Origin: Arenicella sp.
GTDB taxonomy: Bacteria; Pseudomonadota; Gammaproteobacteria; Arenicellales; Arenicellaceae
Direction: 5' to 3'
Assembly: GCA_050633585.1 (NCBI GenBank)
Contig: JBOEGT010000036.1
Span: 13,951 to 77,950, forward strand
Length of the DNA: 64,000 nucleotides
Made by a program: the position numbers and the translations under genes. A model generated the notes under the pieces. The model was not told the DNA's origin. It saw nothing but the letters and a program-made list of their open reading frames with translations, and ran no database searches. Position 1 is the stretch's first letter. The number at the start of each line of letters is the position of its first letter. Positions 2,429 to 24,834 of the stretch are shown piece after piece.

Positions 2429-2430
2429 TC

Positions 2431-5923: not shown

Positions 5924-6748
5924 TTATTGATTTTCTTTTTCTAATAACGATGCCATTTCATTACTAATCGATTCTAGATTTTCTCCTCGCAGTAGGTCTT
6001 CGCTATTATGAGACTCCTCGTAGCGTAATTCAGCGATTCGTTTTTCAATCCCAGCAATATGTTTCTTCATTCTTTCACGAGCAAGAATCGGGTCTTTATT
6101 GAGGATTGCTTCCATGATTCCGCCATGTTCTTTGGGTAAGCGAACATGACGGTTTTCGGTGGATTCGTGGAAATAACTGCTCACACTCACTTCCAGTACG
6201 TTCAGCAAATTGCGCATTAAATGCACGATAGCAGGGTTGTTCGAGGCTTCGGCAATGGCCATATGAAATGCAACATCGGCTTTTGCTTCTTTCTCTGGCA
6301 CGCCATCATTATGCGTTTCCAGTAATTTTTCAAACGATAGTTTAATGTTTTCTCGTTGAGCGTTAGTGGCACGTTTAGCGGCAAAATAGGCAGAAAGTGC
6401 TTCTACGGCAAAACGCAGTTCTAAGATATCAAAAGAAGCATTTCGATCATTCGCAAATAACTCAAGCAAAGGATCTGCAAAAGAAGCACCTATTTCGTCA
6501 GTGATGTAGTTCCCACCGCCAGGAACTTTACGAACGATGCCTTTGGCCTGAAGTTTATTGATTGCTTCACGAATCGATGGGCGGGATACATTAAATTGCT
6601 CGGCCAATTCTCGTTCGGGCGGTAATTTATTACCGGCCAATAACTCTCCAGATACGATACGTTGTTGAATTGCTTCAGCAACAGTGTCTGAAATGGAGGT
6701 GGATTTAACTTCTTGAAATTTCATAAACCTTGGAGCATTAAAAGGCAA
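5924..6748 (-). CDS. GntR/FadR-family transcriptional regulator (wHTH plus FCD domain); candidate LutR-like regulator
   Basis: The N-terminal GntR HTH (KLPPERELAEQFNVSRPSIREAINKLQAKGIV) is followed by an FCD-type all-helical C-terminus. The start may be the internal Met at 6724, which has an AAGG Shine-Dalgarno sequence. It is divergent from dctP at 6969. Confidence 0.75.
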   Translation of the reverse strand: MPFNAPRFMKFQEVKSTSISDTVAEAIQQRIVSGELLAGNKLPPERELAEQFNVSRPSIREAINKLQAKGIVRKVPGGGNYITDEIGASFADPLLELFANDRNASFDILELRFAVEALSAYFAAKRATNAQRENIKLSFEKLLETHNDGVPEKEAKADVAFHMAIAEASNNPAIVHLMRNLLNVLEVSVSSYFHESTENRHVRLPKEHGGIMEAILNKDPILARERMKKHIAGIEKRIAELRYEESHNSEDLLRGENLESISNEMASLLEKENQ

Positions 6749-6787: not shown

Positions 6788-6836
6788 GTGGTCAAACATA
6801 ATTTTAACATGGCAATTTTGAATTCTAATATAAAAT

Positions 6837-6851
6837 ATTGGTATTACCAAT
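6837..6851. promoter_or_regulatory. FadR/GntR-type operator-like palindrome ATTGGTATTACCAAT (copy 1)
   Basis: A 7-1-7 inverted repeat with a TGGTA-N-TACCA core. The identical 15-mer recurs at 25909..25923. Confidence 0.5.
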
Positions 6852-6876
6852 ATACCTGTGATACCCTCCTGCCACT

Positions 6877-6891
6877 ATTGGTAATACCAAT
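6877..6891. promoter_or_regulatory. FadR/GntR-type operator-like palindrome ATTGGTAATACCAAT (copy 2)
   Basis: Same motif as copy 1 with a different centre base. It lies 40 bp downstream of copy 1 and upstream of dctP at 6969. Confidence 0.5.
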
Positions 6892-6968
6892 AAACCATTA
6901 TTCAGAAATTAGACGTTTGATGGCTAAATTAACAATAAATACATAGCCAAATATTCCGGAGGAAATTC

Positions 6969-8036
6969 ATGAAATCATTTTTAATCAAGTCTGCTGCAGT
7001 TGCAGGTTTAACCGCGATCGCAGTAGGAATGTCGACACCAGCACTAGCAAAAGATAAACCTGTACTGTTGAAAATGCCCATTTACTACGGCTCTCACCTA
7101 CCTGGTTTAGGTTCCACGGCAAAATACGTTGCTGATAGAGCGTCTTTGCTAAGTGGTGGAGATGTCAAAATTAAATTATACGAACCGAAGAAATTAATTG
7201 GTTCAAAAGAAATTTTAGATGCAGTTTCAACCGGTAAAGTTCAGGCGGGCTTTGATACACCAGGGAATTGGGGAGGCAAAATGCCGGCGGCACGATTATT
7301 TTCTGCCGTTCCTTTTGGGCCAGAGGCACCAGAATACTTAGCGTGGCTAATGTATGGAAACGGTGGGAAATTACACCAAGAATTGTATGACAATTCAGGC
7401 TATAACGTGAAAACATTGACGTGCGGCATCATTGCCCCTGAAACCTCAGGCTGGTTCAAAAAAGAGATTAAAAGCCCAGAAGACTTAAAAGGCTTAAAAA
7501 TGCGTTTCTTTGGCTTAGGTGCTGAAGTGATGGAAAAATTAGGCGTGAGTACGGTTGGCCTTCCGGGCGGTGAAATTTTCCCAGCATTGGAAAAAGGAGC
7601 GATTGATGCAACAGAATTTTCAATGCCTGCCATCGATAAACGTATTGGTGTTAGTAAAATTGCAAAATACAACTACTATCCAGGTTGGCATCAGCAAGCA
7701 ACTGTTTTTGAACTCATTGTGAACAAAGACACCTGGAACGGGATGAGTGAGCGCCAACAAGCGATTGTGACAGAGCTTTGTCGTGCAGCGACCTTAGATT
7801 CATTAGCATTGGGTGAAGCTATTCAACCTCCCGTTATGGCGGAAAATGAAGCCAATGGTGTGAAAAATTTGTATTGGTCTGAAGATATGTTGGACACGTT
7901 TAAAGCAAAATGGGATGAAGTCGTGGTTGAACAAAAAGCAGCTGATCCAGCATTTGCAAAAATTTGGGCTGATTTAGAGGCATTCCGTAATAGCTATGCG
8001 CTATGGGAAAAGAATGCATTCTTGCCTCGCAAGTAA
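6969..8036 (+). CDS. dctP: TRAP transporter substrate-binding protein, DctP/TakP family
   Basis: 355 aa with a signal peptide (ALA-KD). Paralog motifs are present (MRFFGLGAEV, YYPGWHQQ). It is followed by an attenuator hairpin and dctQM. Confidence 0.8.
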   Translation: MKSFLIKSAAVAGLTAIAVGMSTPALAKDKPVLLKMPIYYGSHLPGLGSTAKYVADRASLLSGGDVKIKLYEPKKLIGSKEILDAVSTGKVQAGFDTPGNWGGKMPAARLFSAVPFGPEAPEYLAWLMYGNGGKLHQELYDNSGYNVKTLTCGIIAPETSGWFKKEIKSPEDLKGLKMRFFGLGAEVMEKLGVSTVGLPGGEIFPALEKGAIDATEFSMPAIDKRIGVSKIAKYNYYPGWHQQATVFELIVNKDTWNGMSERQQAIVTELCRAATLDSLALGEAIQPPVMAENEANGVKNLYWSEDMLDTFKAKWDEVVVEQKAADPAFAKIWADLEAFRNSYALWEKNAFLPRK

Positions 8037-8085
8037 AGCTTCGTCACTTTTACGTTCTACTTTTTAATAAGTAAATATTGCGTTT

Positions 8086-8118
8086 CAAGGATAGAAGGTT
8101 TTCCTTCTATCCTTGTTT
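8086..8118 (+). terminator. intra-operon hairpin or attenuator between dctP and dctQ
   Basis: A perfect 13-bp stem (CAAGGATAGAAGG / CCTTCTATCCTTG) with a TTTT loop is followed by TTTCAC. The T-tract is weak. Confidence 0.5.
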
Positions 8119-8153
8119 CACGCTTAATTTATTTGATTGAATAGGAAAAAACC

Positions 8154-8729
8154 ATGTCTTCAGGTTACCAATCTCTCGATCCAATACCTCCTGTGAGTGA
8201 TACTTCATTAGCGAAGTTCACCTTTGTTTTGGATAAAATTATTCATTTATCAGCACGCATTTTTTGTTGGTGTTACGTCTTATTAATAGCGGCTATTTTA
8301 ATCAATGTTGTTCTACGTTATGGCTTTAATAATGGCCTTATTGTTTTCGAAGAAATTCAGTGGCATTTATATGCTTTAGGCATGATGTTTGGTTTGTCAT
8401 ATGCCGAAATTACCAACAGCCAAGTCAGAGTCGACGTCGTTGCAGACAAGCTAACACGGCGCACTGTCCGGAAATGGGAAATTTTTGGCGCTTTGTTTTT
8501 TGTTTTACCATTTATCTTCGTTGTTCTATTTAACAGTATTGATTATGTGGCTGATTCATATCGGGTGAGTGAATCTTCCAATTCACCGCTTGGCTTGCCT
8601 TATCGTTGGGCCATTAAAGCTGTCATTCCAGCTAGCTTTGTTCTACTAGCAATTGCTGTTGTATCAAGGTTGCTGCATAACATTGATGCACTGATGACAC
8701 ACCAAGATCAGGTTAAAGGAGGTGAGTGA
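8154..8729 (+). CDS. dctQ: TRAP transporter small permease, DctQ
   Basis: 191 aa with four TM segments. It overlaps the downstream dctM by 4 nt. Confidence 0.7.
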   Translation: MSSGYQSLDPIPPVSDTSLAKFTFVLDKIIHLSARIFCWCYVLLIAAILINVVLRYGFNNGLIVFEEIQWHLYALGMMFGLSYAEITNSQVRVDVVADKLTRRTVRKWEIFGALFFVLPFIFVVLFNSIDYVADSYRVSESSNSPLGLPYRWAIKAVIPASFVLLAIAVVSRLLHNIDALMTHQDQVKGGE

Positions 8730-10117
8730 TGGAAATTAATGAATTATTGGTGATTGGCATGTTCCTCACGTTCATTGCCTTTTTGTTTACAGGGATTCCT
8801 GTTGGCTATGTCTTAGCCGGTGTTGGCGTCATATTTGGTTTTTTTGGATATTTGTCCGATGTGTATTTAGGCACCATTACAGGCATAGACCTCAATACAA
8901 TGGGCTTGGTGGTATCACGTCTATTTTCACTCATGGAAAATTGGGTATTAGTCGCATTGCCGATGTTCATCTTCATGGGGTTAATGTTAGACAAGTCAGG
9001 TGTCGCTGAACGATTGATGCTCTCGATGCAAGATTTATTTGGCAAAGTGCGAGGAGGCCTGGCGATTACAGTGACGTTGATTGGGATTATTCTAGCCGCA
9101 TCGACCGGAATTATTGGTGCGTCAGTTGTACTCTTAGGGTTATTATCTTTGCCAGCAATGATGAAGCAAGGTTATAGCAAGGCGCTAGCAACTGGAACAA
9201 TTTGTAGTGCTGGAACGTTAGGCATCTTGCTGCCCCCAAGTATCATGCTTGTGATCATGGCAGATCAATTAGCGTTATCCGTTGGGGATTTATTCATGGC
9301 TGCTGTCTTTCCTGGTTTAATACTTGGCGGCTTATATTTGGCCTATATATTTATAGTGTCCTACGCTAAACCGAATATGGCGCCTCTGCCTGCAGATTAC
9401 CGAAAAATGGAATGGTCAATTGTTTGGTCTGTTCTGAAAAACATTGTGCCACCGTTATTGTTAATTTTAGCCGTATTAGGGTCAATTTTTGCAGGTATTG
9501 CAACGCCGACTGAAGCCAGTGGTATAGGGGCTTTGGGAGCGACTTTATTAGCAGCCTATAATAAGCAACTCAATGTGAGTGTGTTTAAAGAAGTCAGCTT
9601 AGATGCTTATCGCACAACGGCCTATATTTTTATGATTTTCATCGGTGCGACAATGTTTGCGTTGGTGTTACGAGAGTTAGGTGGTGATGAACTGATTGAA
9701 CGAGGTTTAACCAGCTTACCTTTTGGGCCCTATGGTGTGTTGATTTCTATTTTATTGATCGTTTTCTTATTGGGTTTCTTATTAGATTGGATAGAAATCA
9801 CCTTGATCGTATTGCCATTATTAGCCCCGGTTATTATGGGTATGGATTTTGATGTAAATGGTTATGGCACTATTGATGAGCCAGTAGTCATTTGGTTTGT
9901 CATGCTGGTTGCCATCACGTTGCAAACGTCTTTTTTAACCCCGCCAGTAGGGTTTGCCTTGTTTTATTTAAAAGGGGTATGCCCGCCTGAAGTGAAGCTG
10001 ACAGATATCTATAAAGGTGTCACACCATTTATTGTTTTGCAGCTCATTGGGTTATCGATTGTTGTGTTATATCCATCGTTAACAACATGGCTTCCAGCCA
10101 TCGTGTATGGCAATTAA
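8726..10117 (+). CDS. dctM: TRAP transporter large permease, DctM
   Basis: 463-aa polytopic protein. It is a paralog of the gene at 2431..3753. Confidence 0.8.
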   Translation: MMEINELLVIGMFLTFIAFLFTGIPVGYVLAGVGVIFGFFGYLSDVYLGTITGIDLNTMGLVVSRLFSLMENWVLVALPMFIFMGLMLDKSGVAERLMLSMQDLFGKVRGGLAITVTLIGIILAASTGIIGASVVLLGLLSLPAMMKQGYSKALATGTICSAGTLGILLPPSIMLVIMADQLALSVGDLFMAAVFPGLILGGLYLAYIFIVSYAKPNMAPLPADYRKMEWSIVWSVLKNIVPPLLLILAVLGSIFAGIATPTEASGIGALGATLLAAYNKQLNVSVFKEVSLDAYRTTAYIFMIFIGATMFALVLRELGGDELIERGLTSLPFGPYGVLISILLIVFLLGFLLDWIEITLIVLPLLAPVIMGMDFDVNGYGTIDEPVVIWFVMLVAITLQTSFLTPPVGFALFYLKGVCPPEVKLTDIYKGVTPFIVLQLIGLSIVVLYPSLTTWLPAIVYGN

Positions 10118-10140: not shown

Positions 10141-10920
10141 TTATGAATCATCCAAGAGTTGGGCTCTGATTAAACGCTGTTCTTGTCGTTCAATCTCAAG
10201 AATACGATCGCGCTTGTCTCTGACATGGTCCATGGCGGCACGAGCAGCACTGTCAGGTTTTCGGTCAATAATGGCATTAAAGATCAGGCGATGATAAGCC
10301 TGAATCTGTTGTCTAGATCTTTCATGATGGTAAAGATTGCTAACGGTAACAACAACGCTGTTTTGAATGAGTTGCATGAGGTTTTGTAATGTATGAATCA
10401 AAACGGGGTTATGAGATGCGGCGTAAATTGAACGATGAAATTCATGGTCTAACTGTGCGGCATCCAGCATTTCAGCGTTGTTTGCATAGGCTTCATCCAT
10501 GGTATTGAATGCTTTGGTGATGCGATATAGGTCTTTTTCAGTTGCACGTTCAGCGGCGAGTTTGGCCGCTTGACCTTCTAAGAGTTCACGGACTTCGAGA
10601 AGATCAAAAAGCATTCGCGGGTGGTCATCATAGACTTTATTTAAGGTATTCGTTTCGGAGGAATTTTCTAAAAAGTTGCTAACAAAAGATCCTTTTCCAT
10701 GAACTGTATGAATGACACCGCGACCACGTAGTTCTTTGATGGCTTCTCTTACAACGGGTCTAGATGCATTTAAGCGTTCGCAGAGTTGTCTTTCAGAGGG
10801 TATTTTTTCACCGGGTTGTAAAAATCCATCGACAATTAAGCCTTCGATTTGTTGCATGATTTTTGAGCTGGATGACGCCGAAGTGTTTTTGTTTGACATT
10901 TTATTGAAAAAACTGGTCAT
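10141..10920 (-). CDS. glcC: GntR/FadR-family regulator, GlcC-like (glycolate operon regulator candidate)
   Basis: The GntR HTH (KIPSERQLCERLNASRPVVREAIKELRGRGVI) is followed by an FCD domain. The gene is divergent from glcB-glcG-glcDEF, the arrangement seen for E. coli glcC. Confidence 0.7.
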   Translation of the reverse strand: MTSFFNKMSNKNTSASSSSKIMQQIEGLIVDGFLQPGEKIPSERQLCERLNASRPVVREAIKELRGRGVIHTVHGKGSFVSNFLENSSETNTLNKVYDDHPRMLFDLLEVRELLEGQAAKLAAERATEKDLYRITKAFNTMDEAYANNAEMLDAAQLDHEFHRSIYAASHNPVLIHTLQNLMQLIQNSVVVTVSNLYHHERSRQQIQAYHRLIFNAIIDRKPDSAARAAMDHVRDKRDRILEIERQEQRLIRAQLLDDS

Positions 10921-10926
10921 ACCAGT
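10912..10926. promoter_or_regulatory. operator-like inverted repeat ACTGGTCATACCAGT (copy 1)
   Basis: ACTGGT-N3-ACCAGT matches the GntR/FadR consensus t.GT...AC.a. It overlaps the annotated start of the regulator gene. Confidence 0.5.
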
Positions 10927-10986: not shown

Positions 10987-11001
10987 ACTGGTCATACCAG
11001 T
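10987..11001. promoter_or_regulatory. operator-like inverted repeat ACTGGTCATACCAGT (copy 2)
   Basis: An identical 15-mer lies 75 bp downstream of copy 1, in the glcC/glcB divergent promoter region. Confidence 0.5.
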
Positions 11002-11084
11002 ATTTTTGGCATGTAGACACTGGCCACTGTGCTCTCTATATTGGTGAATACATGAAACCCCTATGAAAATGAGGCACGACTCAA

Positions 11085-13250
11085 ATGACAAGCTATATCA
11101 AGAAAAATAACCTTTCAGTACATCCAGATTTAATTGAGCTGTTGGATAATCATATATTGCCAGGGTTGTCTGTATCGGCAGAGCAAGTGTGGACAGGTTT
11201 TTCGAAATTAGTTGAAGAATTAACGCCAGTGAACAAATCGTTACTGGCTAAACGCGAAGCCTTGCAAACTCAAATTGATGAATGGCACACAGCGAACCCA
11301 AATGCCTTGCCGAATAACTTTCAAGCCTATAAAGCCTTCTTACAAGAGATTGGCTATTTGGTTCCAGAAGGTGATGATTTTGCGGCGACCACAGAAAATG
11401 TTGATGCAGAAATTGCGAGTATTGCCGGGCCTCAATTAGTCGTTCCAGTGAATAACGCACGTTTTGCATTGAATGCCGCGAATGCGCGTTGGGGTAGTTT
11501 ATATGATGCTTACTATGGTACAGACGTCATTGATGAAAACGAAGGACGTGAAAAAACAGCGGCATATAACCCCATGCGTGGTAAAGCTGTGATTCAAAAA
11601 GCCGCTGAATTTCTGGACCACTCTATTCCGTTGGCTCTTGGAAAGCATGCCGAAGTTGCGGACTATCACATTGTTGAAAATCAAGTCATTGTGACATTAG
11701 AAAATGGCTCAACCTCAATGTTAAGCAATCCGGAACAATTTATCGCCAGTAACCAAAACGGGGATAAATTAGAGCTGCTATTCGAGAAAAACAATTTGCA
11801 TATTGAGGTCCAAATTGATCGAGATCATCCTATTGGTAAAGATTCGGCTGCGGGTGTTAAAGACATCGTGATTGAGTCAGCGATCAGTACCATTATGGAT
11901 TGTGAAGACTCTGTTGCTGCTGTTGACGGTGAGGATAAAGCCTTGGTGTACCGTAATTGGCTAGGCTTAATGAAAGGTGATTTACAAGAATCTTTTCAAA
12001 AAGGAGGTAAAACGATTACTCGTCAATTAAATCCAAATCGTACTTATACGGGTAAAGATGGAAATAAAGTGGAGTTACATGGCCGCAGTTTGTTATTGGT
12101 CAGGAACGTGGGTCATCTGATGACTAATCCTGCTATTTTGGACGGCCAAGGTAATCAAATTCCGGAAGGAATCATGGATGCGTTGTTCACGACGTTATGT
12201 GCGATGCATGACTTTAAAGATGATGCGCCTATTCACAATAGTCGTCAAAAAAGCATTTATATTGTTAAGCCAAAAATGCATGGACCGGATGAAGTGGCTT
12301 TTGCGAACACACTGTTTTCTCGAGTGGAAGATATGTTAGGTTTACCGCGCAATACAATGAAAATTGGTGTGATGGATGAAGAACGGCGCACGACAGTTAA
12401 TTTGAAGGAATGTATTCGTGCGGTGAAAGAGCGTATTGTGTTTATTAACACAGGGTTCTTGGATCGTACGGGTGATGAAATTCATACATCAATGCAAGCG
12501 GGCGCGTTCTTACCAAAAGAGCAAATCAAGCAAAAAACATGGATTCATGCCTATGAGGATTGGAATGTTGATACAGGCATTCAATGTGGTCTTCCTGGCG
12601 TCGCTCAAATCGGTAAAGGCATGTGGCCAAAGCCTGATGAAATGGCGCAAATGTTGGTCGCGAAAATTGATCATCCGAAGGCTGGAGCTAATTGTGCTTG
12701 GGTGCCCTCACCGACAGGTGCCACATTGCATGCTACTCACTACCACCAAGTCGATGTTTTTGCGGTTCAACAAGCATTAGCAAAACGACAAAAAGCAAAT
12801 GTAGATGATATTTTAACGGTACCATTGTTGGGTGATGTCAGTTTGACTCCCCAAGAAATACAAAATGAGTTAGATAACAACGCGCAAGGTATTTTAGGCT
12901 ATGTTGTGAGGTGGATTGATCAAGGTGTCGGTTGTTCAAAAGTGCCGGATATCAGCAACGTGGGCTTAATGGAAGACCGTGCGACACTGCGTATTTCAAG
13001 TCAATTGCTAGCGAATTGGCTTGAACACGGCATTTGTTCAGAACAAGAGGTGATGGAAGCCATGAAGCGAATGGCTCGCATTGTTGATCAACAAAATGAA
13101 AAAGATGCGAGTTACCAGAAAATGGCACCAAACTTCAATGGCGTTGCATTTAAATCAGCGTGTTCTCTTGTGTTTGAAGGGGTGAGTCAACCGAGTGGTT
13201 ATACTGAGCCATTGCTACATGCGTATCGCTTAGAGGCTAAAGCACAATAA
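11085..13250 (+). CDS. glcB: malate synthase G
   Basis: 721 aa. The length and sequence are typical of malate synthase G, and the gene heads a glc-type operon. Confidence 0.85.
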
Positions 13251-13288: not shown

Positions 13289-13717
13289 ATGATTTCAGTT
13301 AAACGATTAAGTATTGAAGATGCGCACATTTTACTAGCTGGCGCAAAAGCGAAAGCCGATGAAATTGGCGTGCCCATGTGCATTGCTATCACAGACGACT
13401 CAGGAAACCTAGTGGCATTTGAGCGCATGAATGGAGGCAAAGCACATAGTATCCAGGTTTCGATGGATAAAGCGTTTACCGCCGGTTCTGCGCGAAAAGC
13501 AACCCACGAATATAATGCGGCTAATACGCCCGGAAGTTTAGCGTTTGGTATTCACACTGAGTGTGGTGGCCGAATCAGTACGGTCGGTGGCGGATTACCT
13601 GTGCAGGTAGGTGATGACTTTGTTGGCGGTATTGGTGTGAGTTCGGGGACTCCACAGCAAGATATGGACGTTGCCCAAGCCGGGCTTGAGTATTTTCTAC
13701 ATCAAACTAGCAGTTAA
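13289..13717 (+). CDS. glcG: GlcG/DUF336 heme-binding-like protein
   Basis: 142 aa. The GGGLPV...GVSGG motif is typical of GlcG/PduO-C. The gene lies between glcB and glcD. Confidence 0.7.
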   Translation: MISVKRLSIEDAHILLAGAKAKADEIGVPMCIAITDDSGNLVAFERMNGGKAHSIQVSMDKAFTAGSARKATHEYNAANTPGSLAFGIHTECGGRISTVGGGLPVQVGDDFVGGIGVSSGTPQQDMDVAQAGLEYFLHQTSS

Positions 13718-13736: not shown

Positions 13737-15239
13737 ATGAATGAAACGCTTACAGAGAAAACAGCGGTAAATCAGGATAAATTGGCGGCACGTTTTCGTC
13801 AATTTATGGATCCCGACTATGTCATTACTGACGCCGAAACACAGAAAGTGTATGAGTGTGATGGTTTAGCGGCATATTGTGAACTACCGATGGTGACCGT
13901 GTTGCCTGAAACGGTTGAACAAGTACAAAAAATCATGCGCATTTGTCATGAAAATGCGGTGCCTGTTGTGGCTCGTGGTGCGGGTACTGGCTTATCGGCG
14001 GGGGCGACTCCGAATGACTGCGGCGTATTACTGTCTTTAGCAAAATTTAATCAAATTTTAGACATAGACACTGAAGCACGTTTGGCGCGTCTTCAGCCTG
14101 GTGTGAGAAATCTAGCCGTCAGCGAAGCAGCGGCTGAATATGGTTTGTATTATGCGCCTGATCCGTCATCACAGATCGCATGCTCAATTGGAGGTAATGT
14201 CGCTGAAAACGCAGGCGGTGTGCATTGTTTAAAATATGGTTTAACCGTACATAATATAGTCAAAGTGCAAATGATCACCGTCGATGGAGAGCTCATTGAG
14301 TTAGGCAATGAGGGCTTAGACAGCTATGGTATGGACCTTTTAGCGCTAATCCATGGATCAGAAGGTTTGTTGGGTGTAGTGACTGAAGTGACCGTGAGGC
14401 TTTTGCCGACACCTGAAAAAGCACAAGTTGTGCTTGCTGGGTTTGACTCGGTAACAACGGCGGGTGACGCGGTTGCCAAAGTCATTGAGGAAGGTATCAT
14501 TCCTGGTGGTTTAGAAATGATGGATAGTTTTGCCATCATTGCGGCAGATGATTTTGCCAAAGCAGGCTATCCTCGTGATGCTAAAGCGCTTTTATTATGT
14601 GAAATCGATGGTACCGTTGAAGAAGTCGATCAATACATTGATCAAGTAGCGAAATTGTTTAAAAAGCTAGGAGCCACTTCGGTTCAAATTTCCCAAGATG
14701 AAGCGCAACGTATGTTGTTTTGGAAAGGCCGGAAATCGGCATTTCCAGCTGTGGGAAGAATTTCACCAGACTATTATTGTATGGATGGCACCATCCCACG
14801 AGGAGAGCTGTCTACTGTGTTATCTGAAATTGATCGCTTGTCTCAAGAATATGGTTTAAGAGTAGCCAATGTATTTCATGCGGGAGATGGTAATTTACAT
14901 CCGTTGATTTTATTTGATAGCAGTGTGCCAGGAGAGTTTGAAAAAACGGAAGAGTTTGGCGGTCGTATTTTAGAAGCATGCGTCGCAGCAGGGGGCTGTA
15001 TCACTGGAGAGCATGGCGTTGGATTAGAAAAAATTCGTCAAATGGCTGTGCAATTCAATGATCAAGAAATTACACAATTTCATGCTATTAAAAATGCCTT
15101 TGATCCCGTTGGTACGTTGAACCCAGGAAAAGGCATTCCAACACTTAAACGTTGTCAAGAATATCGTTCGATACGTGCTGGCAAGGAGACGTTGTCTTGC
15201 GGACATGAAGCGCACATCGAAGGAGCACACCATGCCTGA
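13737..15239 (+). CDS. glcD: glycolate oxidase FAD-binding subunit GlcD
   Basis: A FAD-binding PCMH domain is present (ARGAGTGLSAG). I set the start at the ATG at 13737 (MNETL), giving about 500 aa like E. coli GlcD. The track ORF begins further upstream at 13671. Confidence 0.8.
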   Translation: MNETLTEKTAVNQDKLAARFRQFMDPDYVITDAETQKVYECDGLAAYCELPMVTVLPETVEQVQKIMRICHENAVPVVARGAGTGLSAGATPNDCGVLLSLAKFNQILDIDTEARLARLQPGVRNLAVSEAAAEYGLYYAPDPSSQIACSIGGNVAENAGGVHCLKYGLTVHNIVKVQMITVDGELIELGNEGLDSYGMDLLALIHGSEGLLGVVTEVTVRLLPTPEKAQVVLAGFDSVTTAGDAVAKVIEEGIIPGGLEMMDSFAIIAADDFAKAGYPRDAKALLLCEIDGTVEEVDQYIDQVAKLFKKLGATSVQISQDEAQRMLFWKGRKSAFPAVGRISPDYYCMDGTIPRGELSTVLSEIDRLSQEYGLRVANVFHAGDGNLHPLILFDSSVPGEFEKTEEFGGRILEACVAAGGCITGEHGVGLEKIRQMAVQFNDQEITQFHAIKNAFDPVGTLNPGKGIPTLKRCQEYRSIRAGKETLSCGHEAHIEGAHHA

Positions 15240-16323
15240 TATTAGCCAACAATTAATTGACCAAATCAATGCCGCGACAGCGGATAAAACCCCTACTCGT
15301 ATTCAAGGTGGCGGTACTAAATTAGGGCTTGGTCGAGTGATTAACACGGAAGAAAGCCTTATTTCCACGCAAGGTCATAGCGGGATTGTTGAATATAAGC
15401 CGGTTGAATTAATCATGACTGTTCGCGGCGGGACGACATTAGCTGAAATAGATGCTGAATTAGCGAAAAATAACCAAATGTTAGCGTGTGACCCCCGTCG
15501 ATACGATGGTAAAGCAACGATTGCTGGGTCACTTGCTACGAATCAGTCTGGCCATGCAAGGCCTTGGTTTGGATCCTTAAGGGATCATGTATTAGGCATC
15601 AAATTGATCAATGGGCACGGAGAACATTTACGTTTTGGTGGCCAGGTGATGAAAAACGTTGCGGGCTATGATGTGTCACGTTTGCAAGCTGGTGCGATGG
15701 GAGCTTTTGGGTTAATTTCTGAAGTGAGCTTCAAAGTATTACCTCGACTTGAAAGTAGTGTGTCATTGAGTCAGTCTATTGATCCTCAAGAGGCTCTAGC
15801 CCTGATGAATAAGTTGGCCGGAACATCGAAACCAATTACTGCGGCTAGCTGGATAGATGGGCGTATCTATATTCGTATCGAAGGGCCTAGAAAAGCGGTG
15901 GATGCTACCAGCAAACAATGGCAATCTGAATATGGTTTGGCGTGCCTTGATGAGCCTGATGCAGTCACTCTATGGCAGTCTTTGCGTGAACATAAGCATG
16001 TGTTCTTTGAGGGTACGGAAGATGAAAAGACATTATGGAAATTTTCAGTTAATGCGGCGGCAAGCCATATTTCACCCGAACAACATTGGGCATTCGATTG
16101 GTGTGGATCACAACGCTGGTTGATAGGGGAGTTCTCTCTCGAAGAGCTAGCTGAGCATGCTAAAAGAATGGGAGGTACTGTTCAACACTACAGTGGGGGT
16201 GATCGTGACCATGATTTAGCCTTGCCACAAAACGAGGCAGTCAAACAGATAATGATCAACTTAAAGAGATCATTTGATCCTGAAAATATCTTTAACCGCG
16301 GCCGTTTATACAGCTGGCTCTAA
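15232..16323 (+). CDS. glcE: glycolate oxidase subunit GlcE (FAD-binding)
   Basis: The start at MPDISQQ overlaps the glcD stop (ATGCCTGA). About 363 aa with an FAD_binding_4 domain. Confidence 0.75.
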   Translation: MPDISQQLIDQINAATADKTPTRIQGGGTKLGLGRVINTEESLISTQGHSGIVEYKPVELIMTVRGGTTLAEIDAELAKNNQMLACDPRRYDGKATIAGSLATNQSGHARPWFGSLRDHVLGIKLINGHGEHLRFGGQVMKNVAGYDVSRLQAGAMGAFGLISEVSFKVLPRLESSVSLSQSIDPQEALALMNKLAGTSKPITAASWIDGRIYIRIEGPRKAVDATSKQWQSEYGLACLDEPDAVTLWQSLREHKHVFFEGTEDEKTLWKFSVNAAASHISPEQHWAFDWCGSQRWLIGEFSLEELAEHAKRMGGTVQHYSGGDRDHDLALPQNEAVKQIMINLKRSFDPENIFNRGRLYSWL

Positions 16324-16343: not shown

Positions 16344-17573
16344 ATGCATACTGAACTACACCCTGAGCTAGTAAATAACCCAAAGGCTGAAGATGCGAAA
16401 AGCATCATCGAAGCCTGTGTACACTGCGGTTTTTGTACAGCGACGTGCCCGACTTATCAGCATTTTAATGATGAGCGTGATGGACCACGAGGGCGTATTT
16501 ACTTGATCAAGCAATTGCTTGAAACCAACGAAGTGACAGAAAAGACCCAGACACATTTAGATCGTTGCCTCACGTGTCGTAGTTGTGAAACGACTTGTCC
16601 ATCTGGCGTGCAGTACGGGCGTTTGGTTGATATTGGTAAAGGGATGGTTGAAGAAAAAGTATCCCGTGGTGTTATGGATACTCTGTCTCGCTGGATGCTG
16701 CGTAAGCTCTTACCTTATCCAAAGCGCTTTGGTATTTTTCTGCGGTTGGGCCAGTTATTTAGGCCGTTGATGATTGGGCCGTTGAGTGTGATTGCCAAAA
16801 AAGTACCACAGAAGCAAAAACATACTCCTTGGCCGTCCACAAGCCATCCCCGCCGAATGCTAGCGTTAGCAGGCTGTGCGCAAAGTGTTGCAACGCCGAA
16901 TACTAATCAAGCCACGGCAAGAGTATTAGATAAATTAGGTATTACCTTAGTAGAAGAGCCGAATGCAGGGTGTTGCGGAGCTGTGGATTATCATCTTGGT
17001 GCGCATGATGATGGATTAAATGCCATGCGCAAAAATATTGATGCGTGGTGGCCAGCTGTTGAAGCAGGGGCTGAAGCGTTAGTGATGACAGCTTCAGGCT
17101 GCGGAGTCATGGTTGAAGAGTATGCTGAGCTGTTTGCGAATGATGCTGAATATGCTGAAAAAGCAAAGCGTATTTCAGCAATGACAAAAGATATCAGTCA
17201 AATTTTAGAAAACGAAGATTTGACGCAGTTAGGCCTTGATCAAGCCAAATTCAGAGAGATTAAAACAGCGGTTCATTGCCCTTGTACATTGCAGCATGGA
17301 ATGAAGTTGACGAATAATGTCGATAACATTCTTGAAAAAGTCGGCGTGCCGCTTGCAAATACGAAAGAAAGGCATATGTGTTGTGGTTCCGCTGGCACAT
17401 ATTCCGTCTTGCAGTCTGAAACAGCGGGAGAGTTATTGAATAAAAAACTCACCGCATTAACGGTGGATGATCCTGATCAAATTGTCACGTCTAATGTTGG
17501 TTGTCAGTTGCATTTGAATACGAAATCAACAGTCCCAGTGAAGCATTGGATAGAATTGCTTGATCAAGGCTGA
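16344..17573 (+). CDS. glcF: glycolate oxidase iron-sulfur subunit GlcF
   Basis: 409 aa. Two 4Fe-4S ferredoxin motifs (CVHCGFCTATCP and CLTCRSCETTCP) plus C-terminal CCG domains. Confidence 0.85.
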   Translation: MHTELHPELVNNPKAEDAKSIIEACVHCGFCTATCPTYQHFNDERDGPRGRIYLIKQLLETNEVTEKTQTHLDRCLTCRSCETTCPSGVQYGRLVDIGKGMVEEKVSRGVMDTLSRWMLRKLLPYPKRFGIFLRLGQLFRPLMIGPLSVIAKKVPQKQKHTPWPSTSHPRRMLALAGCAQSVATPNTNQATARVLDKLGITLVEEPNAGCCGAVDYHLGAHDDGLNAMRKNIDAWWPAVEAGAEALVMTASGCGVMVEEYAELFANDAEYAEKAKRISAMTKDISQILENEDLTQLGLDQAKFREIKTAVHCPCTLQHGMKLTNNVDNILEKVGVPLANTKERHMCCGSAGTYSVLQSETAGELLNKKLTALTVDDPDQIVTSNVGCQLHLNTKSTVPVKHWIELLDQG

Positions 17574-17595
17574 GAGGCGTGCAAATACTAAATTC

Positions 17596-18024
17596 ATGAG
17601 AAATCATTCACACATGCTAAGCCGTAGCCAACAACTTGAAAGCTCAAGCCTAGGATTTTTGGTCGGTTTTGCAGGCTTGCTTGTATTTCAATTACTGGGT
17701 GAAGTGCTTGTTAGACTCATGGGGCTGCCTGTACCAGGTCCTGTCATCGGTTTACTGTTCTTGTTGATCTTTTTGTTGTGGAGAAAGTGGCGAAAGCTAA
17801 GTGAACCAGAATCATTATTGAGTACTTCATCAATGTTGTTAACACATTTGTCGTTGTTATTTGTTCCAGCTGGGGTCGGCATTATTACCCATATAGATAG
17901 AATTAAAACGCAGTGGTTATCCATTTCAGTTGCATTAGTTTTCGCATCATTCATCACATTATTTGTCACCGCATGGAGTTTGAAGTGGTTAATTCGTTTA
18001 ATGAATAAACGAGAACCAGAATAG
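17596..18024 (+). CDS. lrgA: LrgA/CidA family holin-like membrane protein (start uncertain)
   Basis: Small four-TM protein with the LPVPGPVIGLLFLL motif typical of LrgA. The track ORF starts with TTG at 17560 and overlaps glcF. Candidate ATG starts are at 17596 and 17614. Confidence 0.65.
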   Translation: MRNHSHMLSRSQQLESSSLGFLVGFAGLLVFQLLGEVLVRLMGLPVPGPVIGLLFLLIFLLWRKWRKLSEPESLLSTSSMLLTHLSLLFVPAGVGIITHIDRIKTQWLSISVALVFASFITLFVTAWSLKWLIRLMNKREPE

Positions 18025-18094
18025 TGAATGTTAAGCCGATGTTATTTCAGTCCAAGTTATTACTGTCGTTACTTTAGAAAAAGCGAGGCCGAAC

Positions 18095-18814
18095 GTGGAA
18101 AAAGCAAACCTTGATGTATTGTGGGTATATTTATCTACCTCTCCTTTGGCCGGGCTGACAGTGACTCTTGTTGCTTATTTATTGGCTTATGGCTTACAAA
18201 AGAAAACGCAATCACACCCTTTAGCCAATACAGTTCTCGTCTCAGTGGTCATTATTCTGATAACACTGCAATTAACGAAAACGTCGTATGAAGACTATTT
18301 TGAAGGTGCTCAATTCATTCACTTTTTATTGGGCCCAGCGACAGTTGCGCTTGCCGTGCCGCTCTATCGGCAGCTCGATGATGTAAAGCAATATTTATTG
18401 CCTATTTTTTTATCGGTGTCCATAGGTATCACTGCTGGAACCGTATCTGTTGTGGGCATTTCAAAATTGCTTGGCGCTGATCTGGCTACACAAATGTCGT
18501 TATCCGTGCGATCTGTGACCGCACCTGTAGCCATGGGAATTGCCGAGAAAATAGGAGGCATTGCGTCATTGTCTGTTGTCATGGTGCTAATCACCGGTAT
18601 CTTGGGTGCAATGTTTGGTGGGAAAATTTTGCGATTGGCTGGCATAAAAAGTGACATGATGATTGCGATCGCAATGGGCAATAATTCTCATGGCATTGGC
18701 ACAGCCAGAGCATTTACTATTAATCAGCGCAAAGGCGCTTACGCGGCATTAGCGATGGCATTAGCGGTCATTTTAAATGCCATTATGTTGCCTTGGTTAG
18801 TCACTATCATTTAA
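18095..18814 (+). CDS. lrgB: LrgB/CidB family membrane protein (homolog of plant PLGG1 glycolate/glycerate transporter)
   Basis: 239-aa polytopic protein. The LrgB-like sequence includes GPATVALAVPLY and GIGTARAF. It lies immediately downstream of lrgA. Confidence 0.75.
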   Translation: MEKANLDVLWVYLSTSPLAGLTVTLVAYLLAYGLQKKTQSHPLANTVLVSVVIILITLQLTKTSYEDYFEGAQFIHFLLGPATVALAVPLYRQLDDVKQYLLPIFLSVSIGITAGTVSVVGISKLLGADLATQMSLSVRSVTAPVAMGIAEKIGGIASLSVVMVLITGILGAMFGGKILRLAGIKSDMMIAIAMGNNSHGIGTARAFTINQRKGAYAALAMALAVILNAIMLPWLVTII

Positions 18815-18833: not shown

Positions 18834-19916
18834 ATGCACAATATGCAAGTTATCACTGACATCAGTATTCGGCCCATACTTCTTCCAATGGTCGAACCGC
18901 ACAGAACGGCTAGTGGAGTGATTAACGAGTCTCCGTTAATACTCATCGATATAATGACCAATGAAGGTGTTGTTGGCCATGGTGTGTTGTTCACTTATAC
19001 ACAGCTGGCTTTGCGTTCCATTGCAGAGTTCTTAGATAGCCTAAAAGCGTTATTAATAGGTGAAGTGCTGGCGCCTTTAAATGTGTCACAACGCCTACTA
19101 GAAAAGTTTCGTTTATTGGGCACCCAAGGCTTTGTAGGCATGGCTTTAGCCGGCATTGATATGGCGATGTGGGATGCATTAGCTCGATCAAAACAACAAT
19201 CTTTAGTGGCGGCATTAGGGGGGGAACATACACCTACTCCTGTTTATGGTGCAGTGGGTTTCGATGGTGAAAAATGTAGTGCTCACCAAGCAGAGCACTG
19301 GGCAAAGCAAGGTTTTAAAGGCGTCAAAGCGAAAATTGGGTATGCTTCTGTTAACGAAGATATAGCGGTTGTGCGTGCTATGCGTCAAGCAGTTGGGCCT
19401 GATGTTTCAATCATGGTGGATTATAATCAAAGCTTGTCACCTGCTGACGCGATTCATCGTTCTCAACAACTAGATCAAGAAGGCCTTACATGGATTGAAG
19501 AGCCTACATTAGCGCATAATTTTACGGGTCATGGCCACATTTCCAATAACACTCGCACGACTATTCAATGTGGTGAGAATTGGTGGGGTATCCAAGATGT
19601 GCAGCATGCAATTGATGCGAAGGCATCTGATTATTTCATGCTGGATGCAATGAAGATTGGTGGAGTGACTGGATGGATGAAGGCTGCGGCAATGGCTGAA
19701 GCGGTGAATGTACCTGTGTCGAGCCATTTGTGGTCAGAGCTAAGCGCGAGTTTACTGTCGTGTTCTGCTACAGCCAATTGGTTGGAATATTGTGATTGGT
19801 GGAGTCCTCTTCTTCAACAACCTTTAATGATTGACAATGGCATGGCAATACCGAATGAAGAGGTTGGCAGTGGCATTGAGTGGAATGAAGCGATTGTTGA
19901 TCAATATAAATGTTAA
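18834..19916 (+). CDS. enolase-superfamily enzyme, mandelate racemase/muconate lactonising subgroup (acid-sugar or tartrate dehydratase-like)
   Basis: 360 aa with a KxK motif (GVKAKIGY). Metal-ligand positions are in MVDYNQS, WIEEP and MLDAMKIGG. Confidence 0.65.
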   Translation: MHNMQVITDISIRPILLPMVEPHRTASGVINESPLILIDIMTNEGVVGHGVLFTYTQLALRSIAEFLDSLKALLIGEVLAPLNVSQRLLEKFRLLGTQGFVGMALAGIDMAMWDALARSKQQSLVAALGGEHTPTPVYGAVGFDGEKCSAHQAEHWAKQGFKGVKAKIGYASVNEDIAVVRAMRQAVGPDVSIMVDYNQSLSPADAIHRSQQLDQEGLTWIEEPTLAHNFTGHGHISNNTRTTIQCGENWWGIQDVQHAIDAKASDYFMLDAMKIGGVTGWMKAAAMAEAVNVPVSSHLWSELSASLLSCSATANWLEYCDWWSPLLQQPLMIDNGMAIPNEEVGSGIEWNEAIVDQYKC

Positions 19917-19929: not shown

Positions 19930-20721
19930 ATGATGCCGAAGTTTTGCGCGAATCTAAGTACCCTTTTTACTGAATATGATTTTTTGGATCGTTTTGAGAT
20001 AGCATCTGACGCTGGATTTGAAGCGGTAGAGTGCCAGTTTCCTTATGCTGAATCTGCTCAGGATATTCAGCAACGCTTGCTTGCGAACGATCTACAGTTA
20101 ATTTTGCACAACTTTCCTGCAGGTGATTGGGATGCTGGAGAGAGAGGGATTGCCTGCTTGCCAGACAGAGTTGACGATTTTAAGGCGGGTGTAGATCAAG
20201 CAATTGAATATGCTAGCCTTTTAGGCTGTAGAAAACTGAATGTCTTAGCCGGGCTTGCGCCTGAAAGTATTTCTCCAGAGGAATTGACACAGACATTATT
20301 AAGCAACCTTCGTTATGCCGCAAACCAGCTAAAGCCATATGGTATTGATTTGCTGATCGAAGCCATCAACACACAAGATGTTCCTGGTTTTTTTGTCAAC
20401 AACACTCAACAGGTTTTGGCATTGATTCATAATCTATCCCTTCAACACGATAATGTGTTTATGCAATATGATATTTATCACATGCAAATTATGGAAGGTA
20501 ATTTAACTCGAACGATAAGCGATAACCTGAGCCAAATTCGCCATATTCAATTAGCCGATAATCCCTTACGCCAAGAACCAGGCACTGGGGAAATTAATTT
20601 TGATTTTTTACTGCAAACAATAGATCAACTGGGCTATCAAGGATGGATTGGTTGTGAGTATTTCCCCAAAAATGACACGATAAGCGGTTTATCGTGGATG
20701 GAGAATTATTCTTCTAAGTAA
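19930..20721 (+). CDS. hyi: hydroxypyruvate isomerase
   Basis: 263 aa with a TIM-barrel Hyi-like N-terminus (MPKFCANLSTLFTEYDFLDRF). It is adjacent to glxR. Confidence 0.75.
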   Translation: MMPKFCANLSTLFTEYDFLDRFEIASDAGFEAVECQFPYAESAQDIQQRLLANDLQLILHNFPAGDWDAGERGIACLPDRVDDFKAGVDQAIEYASLLGCRKLNVLAGLAPESISPEELTQTLLSNLRYAANQLKPYGIDLLIEAINTQDVPGFFVNNTQQVLALIHNLSLQHDNVFMQYDIYHMQIMEGNLTRTISDNLSQIRHIQLADNPLRQEPGTGEINFDFLLQTIDQLGYQGWIGCEYFPKNDTISGLSWMENYSSK

Positions 20722-21587
20722 ACGTTGATCAAATTTGCTGGATCGATGTCGGCATAACCGATGTTGCAATATTGTCGCATGAGTTGTTGGGCAAGAGATG
20801 CGATGGGTGTGTTGCTGTTATGTGACTCAGCCATACCAGATGCTAAATCTAAGTCTTTTGCTAGTGTTTTAGTGTGCCACTTAATATCGTCAAAATCGGC
20901 ATCAACCATGCGTTGTCCTGTTAGCTGGAAAGGAATGGAATCTGCAAAACCTCCTGCTAGAGCGCTGGGTATTTTTTCACTATGAATACCTGATTTTTTA
21001 GCCAGCGCTAAGACTTCCGCCATAACCAATATATTGCAGCTCACAATCATTTGGTTGCATACTTTGGTCGCTTGACCACTGCCGACAGGCCCCATATGAG
21101 TGACTCGTTGAGATAGGTGTGCAAGGATTGGTCGAATGGCATCGACATCTTCGGTGTTGCCTCCAGACATGACGACTAGCTTGCCTGATTCGGCGCCCGC
21201 CACCCCGCCAGAAACCGGTGAATCTATCCATCGCATGCCTGATGCTTGATGAAGTTTTTTAGCGAATATTTTGGTTTGCGCGGGATCAATGCTAGAAAAG
21301 TCGATGAGTACTTTGTTGGCATGACTGTTTTGCAAAAACTCATTTGACAAAACAACTTTTTCGACTGCATCGGTATCAGTCAAACAGCACATGATAATGT
21401 CATTGTTGGCAACTAACTCACCGATTGAATTTGCAACGGTAGCTCCTTGTGCTTTTAGTTCATCGCACTTTTCGATCGTACGATTCCAGACAGTCAGTTG
21501 CATTCCTGCCTTTAATAAGCGTTGGCTCATTGGGTGACCCATTAAGCCAATGCCGATAAAACCAATTTTGGGTTGATGAGACGCCAT
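20706..21587 (-). CDS. glxR: 2-hydroxy-3-oxopropionate (tartronate semialdehyde) reductase, GlxR/GarR family
   Basis: 293 aa. An N-terminal Rossmann fold (IGFIGIGLMGHPM) and 3-hydroxyisobutyrate dehydrogenase-family motifs are present. Confidence 0.75.
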   Translation of the reverse strand: MASHQPKIGFIGIGLMGHPMSQRLLKAGMQLTVWNRTIEKCDELKAQGATVANSIGELVANNDIIMCCLTDTDAVEKVVLSNEFLQNSHANKVLIDFSSIDPAQTKIFAKKLHQASGMRWIDSPVSGGVAGAESGKLVVMSGGNTEDVDAIRPILAHLSQRVTHMGPVGSGQATKVCNQMIVSCNILVMAEVLALAKKSGIHSEKIPSALAGGFADSIPFQLTGQRMVDADFDDIKWHTKTLAKDLDLASGMAESHNSNTPIASLAQQLMRQYCNIGYADIDPANLINVYLEE

Positions 21588-23874: not shown

Positions 23875-24834
23875 ATGAACGTGCAAAGACGACACAAGCT
23901 GCCTAGGCAGTTAATGGATACTCTAAAAAAGCATATTCATAAAGAAAAATTACCCGATAATTTTTTAAACACTGTCGAAACTTTCTATTGGCCTATTGTT
24001 TGCGAGATCGTGGATCGGCTCAAACATATCGATCATGATGAAACAGTGCCTCCTTTCTTTTTGGGAGTTCAAGGCGCTCAAGGCAGCGGCAAGTCAACGC
24101 TAGCCAGCTTTATCAAATTGATGTTAGAGCAAGGGTTTGCAAAAAACTGTTTGGTGTTGTCGATCGATGATTTTTATCGGACGAAGGCTGAGCGCAAAGC
24201 GTTGGGTAGTCAAGTCCATCCATTACTCACTACCCGTGGTGTGCCAGGCACGCATGATATTGATTTGTTCAATGATACTTGGGACAGCATCAAACAAATC
24301 GGAGAAGGACAAACACTAGATATTGTGACGTTTGATAAGTCTTTGGATGATAGAGCGGCTAAAAAGGATTGGCAGCGTGTGTCAATGCCACAGGATGTAG
24401 TTATTCTTGAAGGTTGGTGTGTGGGTGTTTCAGCGCAGAAAAAAACGGATTTGATACAGCCGATTAATGCGCTTGAAACACATGAAGATGCTGATGGGCG
24501 TTGGCGGCAATATGTGAATGATCAAATTCAGCACCATTACAAACCCGTCTATGATCAGTTCAATGGCTTAGTGGTATTGCAGTCACCTTCCTTTGAATGT
24601 GTTTTACAGTGGCGAACTAAGCAAGAGCGTAAGTTGATTGAAAAGTTGCAGGCGAATGATCAACCATTACATGACACCATGAGCCCCACGCAGATCAAAC
24701 GATTTATCTCTTATTATCAGCGATTAACTGAGCATGCGATGGAAACGTTGCCTGAGAAAGCTGATTGGCTGCTGGTGCTACATGCAAATCATGCTGTTAC
24801 CAACTTAGTGCAGCGTGCCAATGAAAATGAATAG
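23875..24834 (+). CDS. P-loop kinase, COG4240/GLYK-like (candidate D-glycerate 3-kinase)
   Basis: 319 aa with a Walker A motif (GVQGAQGSGKSTL) in a PRK/uridine-kinase-like arrangement. It sits in a glycerate-pathway gene neighbourhood. Confidence 0.5.
   Translation: MNVQRRHKLPRQLMDTLKKHIHKEKLPDNFLNTVETFYWPIVCEIVDRLKHIDHDETVPPFFLGVQGAQGSGKSTLASFIKLMLEQGFAKNCLVLSIDDFYRTKAERKALGSQVHPLLTTRGVPGTHDIDLFNDTWDSIKQIGEGQTLDIVTFDKSLDDRAAKKDWQRVSMPQDVVILEGWCVGVSAQKKTDLIQPINALETHEDADGRWRQYVNDQIQHHYKPVYDQFNGLVVLQSPSFECVLQWRTKQERKLIEKLQANDQPLHDTMSPTQIKRFISYYQRLTEHAMETLPEKADWLLVLHANHAVTNLVQRANENE

Follow-up and report, generated by a model that had tools for sequence, protein, structure and literature searches.

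Which protein brings glycolate into a cell whose glycolate operon holds an lrgAB pair at the place where that of Escherichia coli holds the permease gene glcA? The question is raised by a 64-kb stretch of an Arenicella sp. contig, analysed in full and called the window here, in which the genes of an E. coli-type glc operon are followed by lrgA and lrgB. Glycolate is among the largest fluxes of carbon from algae to bacteria and, to our knowledge, characterised glycolate permeases of bacteria are limited to GlcA and LldP, two enterobacterial proteins of the LctP family. Our analysis suggests that LrgAB works as a secondary carrier whose substrate is a small acid of the 2-hydroxy or 2-oxo type linked to glycolate/glyoxylate metabolism, with glycolate uptake as the leading reading; both the substrate and the direction are what we infer from gene context. 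For the more specific proposal, namely that the window pair is the C2-acid carrier of a GlcC-controlled glc operon in which it replaces GlcA, the chances appear to us about even.

The operon reads glcB-glcG-glcD-glcE-glcF-lrgA-lrgB-racemase-like gene-hyi on the + strand, with a divergent GlcC-like gene on the - strand upstream. Public gene calls were taken from the identical contig in GCA_041156805.1. The nine + strand genes are the following:

11085..13250, + strand: glcB, malate synthase G, first gene of the operon (54% identity to E. coli GlcB; Pfam MS_N, MSG_insertion, MS_TIM-barrel and MS_C)
13289..13717, + strand: glcG, HbpS-like (PF03928, E 5e-35; 32% identity to E. coli GlcG)
13737..15239, + strand: glcD, glycolate dehydrogenase subunit linked to flavin adenine dinucleotide (FAD) (66% identity to E. 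coli GlcD; Pfam FAD_binding_4 and FAD-oxidase_C)
15232..16323, + strand: glcE (39% identity to E. coli GlcE; overlap of 8 nucleotides (nt) with glcD)
16344..17573, + strand: glcF, Fe-S subunit (52% identity to E. coli GlcF; Pfam CCG twice and Fer4)
17614..18024, + strand: lrgA, predicted small four-helix subunit (PF03788, E 4.3e-25; public call of 136 residues; hydrophobic segments in a hydropathy scan)
18095..18814, + strand: lrgB, predicted carrier core subunit (PF04172, E 1.4e-72; GTG start, with GAGG 8 nt upstream)
18834..19916, + strand: mandelate-racemase-like gene of the enolase superfamily, 19 nt past lrgB (45% identity to Pseudomonas putida mandelate racemase)
19930..20721, + strand: hyi, hydroxypyruvate isomerase-type, last + strand gene (TIGR03234, 364.8 bits for a cut-off of 353)

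Successive intergenic distances are 38, 19, -8, 20, 40, 70, 19 and 13 nt. The genes for GlcD, GlcE, GlcF, malate synthase G and GlcG are contiguous and on one strand, as is typical of an E. coli-type glc operon, and the window GlcB, GlcC, GlcD, GlcE, GlcF and GlcG are true orthologues of the E. coli K-12 set. An earlier note on this DNA had placed lrgAB after glcF; this placement stands, but the operon is larger than was described there, running from glcB through hyi.

The window LrgB matches PF04172 over positions 1-213 of the 214 of the profile (244 bits), and the PF03788 gene lies directly 5' of lrgB on the same strand. These two matches confirmed the order previously proposed, in which lrgB follows lrgA and both follow glcF. 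An LrgA gene was also found immediately upstream of the LrgB gene in all 82 non-redundant related loci described below. The start of lrgA likely corresponds to ATG 17614, 40 nt past glcF, because the public gene call and the alignment of homologues both place it there. Of the two starts suggested before, right after glcF or within it, the first is thus retained; the second, at TTG 17560, is unlikely, this codon being merely the start of the longest open reading frame (ORF) and overlapping the final 14 nt of glcF. ATG 17596 is an alternative possible start.

The closest named relative of the window LrgB, with 86% identity, belongs to an uncultured Arenicellaceae bin (L006). The scores against the curated NCBIfam models were all below the cut-offs (TIGR00659, 180.7 vs 249.7 bits; PRK10711, 151.9 vs 267; PRK04288, 119.5 vs 264); the protein therefore falls outside the LrgB, CidB and YohK equivalogs that these models represent and belongs to a separate subfamily. 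No solved structure of the LrgB family was found in our copy of the PDB, where the sole match, at E 0.5, was due to chance. The AlphaFold2 model obtained with 59 homologues was all-helical (mean predicted local distance difference test score 72, predicted template modelling score 0.66), with long helices and two pairs of short helices at residues 130-152 and 187-209. Invariant motifs of LrgB fall in these two pairs (S140-T142-P144-V145-A146-M147 and G195-H199-G200-G202-T203). The LrgB family has been described as a helical membrane core with two re-entrant hairpins, related to carriers of the CPA/AT type (PMC8396727), and the predicted fold of the window protein resembles the carboxylate carriers CitS and AspT more than a pore (PMC8396727).

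Co-transcription of lrgAB with the glc genes is very likely, because the genes share one strand, short spacers and a uniform composition, and because neither a terminator nor a structured spacer separates them. Indeed, no terminator-like site was detected on the + strand between 16344 and 20721, nor over the whole glcB-hyi span, so that what had been stated for the glcF-lrgA junction holds for the entire operon. The glcF-lrgA and lrgA-lrgB spacers fold like shuffled sequence (z of -0.4 and +0.7, respectively), and the glcF-lrgA spacer contains no promoter-like hexamer pair. Across the region, promoter-like matches were fewer than in shuffled sequence (25 vs 34). An internal promoter for lrgAB was considered and is unsupported, as just weak 9/12 matches inside coding sequence were seen. 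Also, a recent insertion of lrgAB was rejected, since its G+C content, overall and at third codon positions, equals that of the neighbouring genes. The racemase-like gene is probably part of the same transcript as lrgB.

Upstream of glcB, the following regulatory elements were found:

10141..10920, - strand: glcC-like regulator of the GntR/FCD type (Pfam GntR and FCD; public call starting at 10857, 238 residues; 45% identity to E. coli GlcC)
10912..10926, no strand assigned: operator-like palindrome ACTGGTCATACCAGT, copy 1, on the glcC side, perfect copy
10987..11001, no strand assigned: operator-like palindrome ACTGGTCATACCAGT, copy 2, 12 nt 5' of the -35 hexamer of the promoter-like site of glcB

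The top NCBIfam model for the regulator was GlcC, with 251.5 bits (158.9 for LldR and 157.5 for PdhR), a score which lies below the GlcC cut-off of 301. The two perfect copies of ACTGGTCATACCAGT, both in the glcC-glcB spacer, are the only ones in the window, where 0.03 would be expected by chance. The promoter-like site of glcB (TAGACA-17-TATATT, 11014-11042, 10/12 matches) is the best + strand site of the region. The core motif CTGGTnnnACCAG recurs in other loci. It lies shortly before glcB in L008, a Colwellia bin, and in L088, a TARA contig; in the E. coli-like contig L110, it occupies the spacer between glcC and glcD; and Marinobacter (L009) has two copies ahead of a glcC-like gene and lrgAB. 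Such a position upstream of glc genes or glcC was observed in 6 of the 8 fetched loci containing the motif. Thus, the ACTGGTCATACCAGT/CTGGTnnnACCAG palindrome is read as a putative GlcC operator. In the Marinobacter locus (700-3853), the two GlcC-type palindromes are followed on one strand by the GlcC-like gene, lrgA, lrgB and dctP. The contig, 4 kb long, carries no glc enzyme genes, and this locus looks like a GlcC regulon reduced to transporters.

The association of lrgAB with glycolate or glyoxylate genes was then considered in other genomes. The neighbourhood set comprised 80 genome loci of the closest LrgB relatives (46-86% identity, 10-kb flanks) together with the loci from exact-protein look-up, or 82 non-redundant loci; flanking ORFs were clustered, and the spurious antisense ORFs of high-G+C genomes were set aside. 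Among the real neighbours of this LrgB clade, the GlcF family was the most frequent, with 11 loci from about five lineages: the window, Colwellia (L008), Hydrogenophaga (L042, L047, L053, L058), Herminiimonas (L057) and Cupriavidus (L059, L064, L069, L079). In all 11, glcF precedes lrgAB on the same strand, with glcE and glcD upstream wherever the contig extends. Two additional metagenome contigs (L160, L162) show glcF followed by lrgAB, and the whole arrangement, with glcC, glcBGDEF, lrgAB and the racemase-like gene, is kept in relatives with LrgB identities of 79% and 74% (L168-L171). The glcF-lrgA spacer measures 3-12 nt in L160, L162, L057 and L058. One large contig (L005) presents the order glcG-lrgA-lrgB.

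In seven Rhodocyclaceae loci (L026, L030, L032, L043, L062, L074, L077), lrgAB follows aceB, the gene 5' of lrgAB scoring above the malate synthase A cut-off (TIGR01344, 753.7 bits). These loci give the same LrgB clade a second context linked to glyoxylate, independent of the first. Altogether, glcF or aceB adjoins lrgAB in 18 of the 82 loci, and neighbours linked to glycolate or glyoxylate occur in about a quarter of them, in at least six lineages. Such a linkage is not due to chance, because one specific neighbour among several thousand genes recurs in about a quarter of the loci and in at least six lineages. The LrgB tree shows the loci with this linkage dispersed over gamma- and betaproteobacterial branches that track taxonomy; therefore, the linkage was gained several times or has long been retained. 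On this comparative basis, a functional tie of glc-linked LrgAB to glycolate/glyoxylate metabolism is well supported.

Some of these loci present additional genes. A FixL-like histidine kinase and a FixJ-like response regulator follow lrgAB in several Rhodocyclaceae loci (some of the seven aceB loci, as well as L022, L025, L027 and L048). In the Colwellia bin, a gene for an NAD-malic enzyme lies between glcF and lrgA (7796-9490), and the string glcB-glcG-glcDEF-maeA-lrgAB encodes the route from glycolate to glyoxylate, malate and pyruvate together with a carrier. The four Cupriavidus loci, which come from four species, contain an extra gene of about 1 kb between glcD and glcE, at the position of the 'kch' of Cupriavidus necator, which has been regarded as a possible fourth subunit (PMC7486775), and a second GlcD-like FAD oxidase (30% identity) upstream.

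How could such a pair work within the operon? In the model that we favour, GlcC would switch the operon on at the two ACTGGTCATACCAGT boxes when glycolate is present. LrgB, with its putative re-entrant hairpins, would be the transport core and LrgA its four-helix partner, the two forming one secondary carrier that moves a C2 acid over the inner membrane, i.e., glycolate, with glyoxylate or a C3 2-hydroxy acid as possible further substrates. GlcDEF would then convert glycolate to glyoxylate, and malate synthase G would convert glyoxylate to malate. To judge from PftAB and YohJK, transport is probably reversible and driven by a gradient; the net flux would be directed inward, because the substrate is consumed inside by the co-expressed enzymes. 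The characterised relatives of LrgAB all transport small acids, and the most economical model is a gradient-driven carrier of heteromeric type whose substrate is a 2-hydroxy/2-oxo monocarboxylate of two or three carbons. Within it, three arguments speak for glycolate, namely the predicted GlcC control, the position equivalent to that of glcA and the plant precedent. The aceB-lrgAB operons and the transport of a 2-oxo acid (pyruvate) by bacterial relatives speak for glyoxylate. For the window clade only, the racemase-like gene after lrgB, with hyi, the reductase and the GLYK-like kinase nearby, points to a C3 hydroxy acid. This C3 reading ranks below the C2 reading, because other lineages with glcF-lrgAB lack the racemase-like gene.

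The presence of LrgAB in place of the LctP-type GlcA would correspond to a non-orthologous displacement. A search of the window with E. coli GlcA by tblastn returned no match at E<=10, in agreement with the claim that it lacks a permease of the GlcA/LldP type, and no GlcA or LldP gene was found within 10 kb of lrgAB in any of 85 loci. The accompanying claim, that E. coli has no dedicated transporter at this place, was wrong, as glcA is the permease gene at the 3' end of its glcDEFGBA operon.

Several observations weigh against this interpretation. About 60 of the 82 loci of the clade have no related neighbour, for example those of Thiothrix, Leucothrix, most Marinobacter and a metagenome contig with 59% identity. 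When metagenomic loci were found through GlcF (49-70% identity), only 2 of 80 (L160 and L162) carried lrgAB downstream. Among those 80 loci, glcA was present in one (the E. coli-like L110), and most had no adjacent transporter among the queries used. The glcF-lrgAB arrangement is therefore real and recurrent, yet a minority solution. In Cupriavidus, the glcF-lrgA spacer reaches 180-290 nt, which makes co-transcription less certain there. As regards the substrate, the glcB and aceB contexts have glyoxylate in common, not glycolate, and the aceB-lrgAB operons of Rhodocyclaceae suggest glyoxylate no less strongly than glycolate. Finally, another transporter adjoins glcC in the window:

6969..10117, + strand: dctPQM of a tripartite ATP-independent periplasmic (TRAP) transporter (Pfam DctQ and DctM)

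This TRAP system, of the TakP/keto-acid type, could itself import glycolate or glyoxylate, and may be responsible for high-affinity uptake of glycolate. The window contains two complete TRAP systems (609-3753 and 6969-10117) and two orphan DctP genes, which had been overlooked when LrgAB was proposed as the uptake system of the operon; of that proposal, the tie to glycolate/glyoxylate metabolism is retained and the status of sole uptake system is not.

An explanation can be built on these transporters, in which a TRAP system (the glc-adjacent one or another of the four DctP-type proteins) imports glycolate, while LrgAB acts as a low-affinity, reversible valve by which an overloaded pathway releases or takes back glyoxylate, glycolate or pyruvate. 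We consider it unlikely. The dctPQM genes end 24 nt before the 3' end of glcC, and the DctM protein shares 84-85% identity with the DctM encoded beside glcB in L088 and in the Colwellia bin. The best PDB matches of the DctP protein are TakP (2hzk) and the keto-acid-binding protein 7ug8, which places it in the group of keto-acid/pyruvate-type TRAP binding proteins. Also, TRAP genes and lrgAB are present together in the window, in the Colwellia bin and in the Marinobacter locus; as they co-occur and do not replace each other, two different roles are suggested, and a split between high- and low-affinity uptake, or between 2-oxo and 2-hydroxy acids, is a possibility. A valve would fit with glyoxylate, a toxic aldehyde-acid, being the metabolite common to the glcDEF, glcB and aceB contexts. 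Such a role has been shown for PftAB, which is bidirectional with pyruvate (PMC5626966), and proposed for YohJK, a putative exporter of 3-hydroxypropionate (PMC7642389), and a glcDEF mutant of C. necator excretes glycolate via an unknown route (PMC7486775).

However, the glc-adjacent TRAP operon has a regulator of its own, divergent and PdhR/LldR-like (5924-6748; 208 and 186 bits, respectively, vs 139 for GlcC). Two ATTGGTnnnACCAAT palindromes (6834-6853 and 6877-6895) lie upstream of dctPQM; no GlcC box was found at this operon, the GlcC boxes being 4 kb away. For these reasons, the operon looks like a pyruvate/lactate-type regulon, apparently separate from the GlcC boxes. Moreover, glcDEF-lrgAB occurs without any TRAP match in the fetched flanks of L168-L171, Cupriavidus and Hydrogenophaga, and an exporter is less common than an importer in a substrate-induced catabolic operon. 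The Marinobacter TRAP genes were tried as orthologues of the glc-adjacent ones and rejected, as their DctP is 53% and 47% identical to the other DctPs of the window vs 35% to the glc-adjacent one.

A further explanation assigns LrgAB to the genes downstream, with import of a chiral 2-hydroxy acid of three or more carbons (glycerate, lactate), which would be racemised and fed to Hyi, to an enzyme resembling tartronate-semialdehyde reductase and to a GLYK-like kinase. It seems to us distinctly unlikely. The racemase-like gene is conserved after lrgB in the Arenicellaceae bin and in L168-L171, and its product aligns with the P. putida enzyme, a true mandelate racemase, without gaps over 353 residues and keeps all catalytic motifs (KxK, the three metal ligands, the His-Asp pair and the Glu). 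As glycolate is achiral, the role of such an enzyme in a glycolate operon is not obvious. Glycerate is, besides glycolate, a substrate of PLGG1 (PMC4368765), and the other enzymes required lie within 6 kb. Hyi also scores above the NCBIfam cut-off for 2-oxo-tetronate isomerase. A convergent dehydrogenase (20706-21587, - strand) resembles 2-hydroxy-3-oxopropionate reductases. A P-loop kinase (23875-24834, + strand), located 5 kb from lrgAB after PhyH and EamA genes, has no Pfam match; among solved structures, it is closest to D-glycerate 3-kinases of the plant/fungal GLYK type (6ckg, E 5e-18; 7xpc; 1odf). On the other side, lrgAB follows glcF or aceB without a racemase-like gene outside the window clade, i.e., in Colwellia, Hydrogenophaga, Herminiimonas, Cupriavidus and Rhodocyclaceae, so that the constant partner of lrgAB across lineages is glycolate/glyoxylate metabolism and not the racemase. 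The reductase also falls under its family cut-off (223 vs 340 bits). The classical glycerate pathway is incomplete in the window, as no glyoxylate carboligase gene (gcl) was found there; an ORF of 593 residues at 30476 was examined as a candidate for it and rejected, being the alpha subunit of oxaloacetate decarboxylase.

Lastly, the database label 'CidB/LrgB family autolysis modulator', the holin-like activity of Staphylococcus aureus CidA and LrgA in a lysis-cassette test (PMC8805020) and the unrelated contexts of most LrgB relatives might suggest a holin/antiholin-like pair that modulates murein hydrolases and lysis and stands after glcF by chance or hitch-hiking, which is highly improbable given the adjacency to glcF or aceB beyond chance, the GlcC-type boxes upstream of lrgAB in Marinobacter, the absence of murein hydrolase or LytSR genes near the window lrgAB, the carrier-like fold of LrgB (predicted model; PMC8396727) and the fact that the S. 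aureus study also ties the CidA/LrgA proteins to the transport of by-products of carbohydrate metabolism (PMC8805020).

Other organic-acid genes were noticed in the window. Between 25993 and 33459, an orphan DctP gene stands by lactate utilisation genes of the lutABC type, and genes for the alpha and beta subunits of a Na+-pumping oxaloacetate decarboxylase come next; this region and the glc locus together make up a putative island for small organic acids. An SbtA-like membrane protein of the Sbt_1 family is encoded near a LysR-type regulator (37569-40753, - strand), that is, a bicarbonate-transporter-like gene in an apparent heterotroph.

Full-text literature searches returned no paper joining bacterial lrgAB to glcDEF, glycolate or glyoxylate; just co-mentions in papers on plants or on Bacillus/Priestia were found. 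The study of the C. necator glcD-kch-glcE-glcF operon, in which glcD1, kch, glcE and glcF are up by 2.2-2.6 log2 units at ambient CO2, omits mention of the downstream pair (PMC7486775), and the papers on glycolate metabolism in Paracoccus and Cupriavidus name no transporter (PMC11323563, PMC7486775). A preprint of 2025 reports that marine isolates are mostly devoid of glcA, with none in the Alpha- and Gammaproteobacteria that it covers, and anticipates that further glycolate transporters will be discovered (10.1101/2025.09.29.679071). For bacteria without known permeases, glc-linked LrgAB is, as far as genomic data go, a reasonable candidate carrier of glycolate or glyoxylate, and the idea is a straightforward extension of the known function of the LrgA/LrgB family. 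A family that moves glycolate in chloroplasts and recurs in glcDEF and aceB operons gives a concrete and genetically testable candidate, for which Cupriavidus is a tractable host; C. necator H16 is able to grow on glycolate. If this proposal is true, proteobacterial LrgAB would gain a metabolic role, displacing the misleading label of 'murein hydrolase effector', with a bearing on the engineering of glycolate export or uptake.

Compared with known systems, the locus is close to E. coli glcC/glcDEFGBA by its GlcC-like regulator, its operator-like palindrome, its GlcD, GlcE, GlcF, GlcG and GlcB orthologues and its transporter genes 3' of the enzymes. It differs by the order glcB-G-D-E-F, by LrgAB standing where E. 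coli has the LctP-family GlcA, and by the extra racemase-like gene and hyi. The closest characterised proteobacterial homologue of the window LrgB is E. coli YohK (37% identity; the PRK10711 score lies under the cut-off, as given above). YohJK is a putative exporter of 3-hydroxypropionate (PMC7642389), so that its substrate would also be a small hydroxy-monocarboxylate, with export as the proposed direction. However, yohJK stands alone between dusC and cdd under the control of YieP, whereas the window lrgAB lies inside the glc operon.

PftAB (YsbAB) of Bacillus subtilis and the streptococcal and staphylococcal LrgAB are, like the window pair, two-subunit systems of the LrgA/LrgB type. PftAB carries a small 2-oxo monocarboxylate, pyruvate, by substrate-induced, facilitated and reversible transport in both directions (PMC5626966). 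These pyruvate carriers are under two-component systems of the LytST type, whereas the predicted regulator of the window operon is a GlcC-type GntR protein and no LytS/LytT-type gene flanks lrgAB in the window. Also, the window LrgB falls under the NCBIfam LrgB cut-off (PRK04288), and its partners are enzymes of glycolate and glyoxylate, not of pyruvate.

PLGG1 carries glycolate and glycerate (PMC4368765), and both precedents that the earlier note had invoked, this transporter and a bacterial LrgAB-type pair carrying pyruvate (PftAB, PMC5626966), hold in the literature. At the family level, PLGG1 resembles the window pair by the LrgA and LrgB Pfam families, the link to glycolate, the genes of glycerate metabolism near the window pair and a predicted carrier rather than a pore. 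PLGG1 is a single, fused polypeptide with about 12 helices; in the window, each of the two parts has its own ORF, with a stop codon and 70 nt of spacer between them. PLGG1 works in photorespiratory exchange over the plastid envelope, whereas the window pair belongs to a catabolic operon of a heterotroph-like marine gammaproteobacterium. By analogy, glc-linked LrgAB may be the unfused bacterial counterparts of PLGG1 in function and fold, that is, importers of glycolate (glycerate, glyoxylate) in marine and soil proteobacteria without GlcA or LldP; we regard this broader reading as possible though doubtful. If it were true, the substrate range of the photorespiratory transporter would be older than the fusion of LrgA with LrgB, given the racemase-like gene and the homologue of plant-type D-glycerate 3-kinase nearby.

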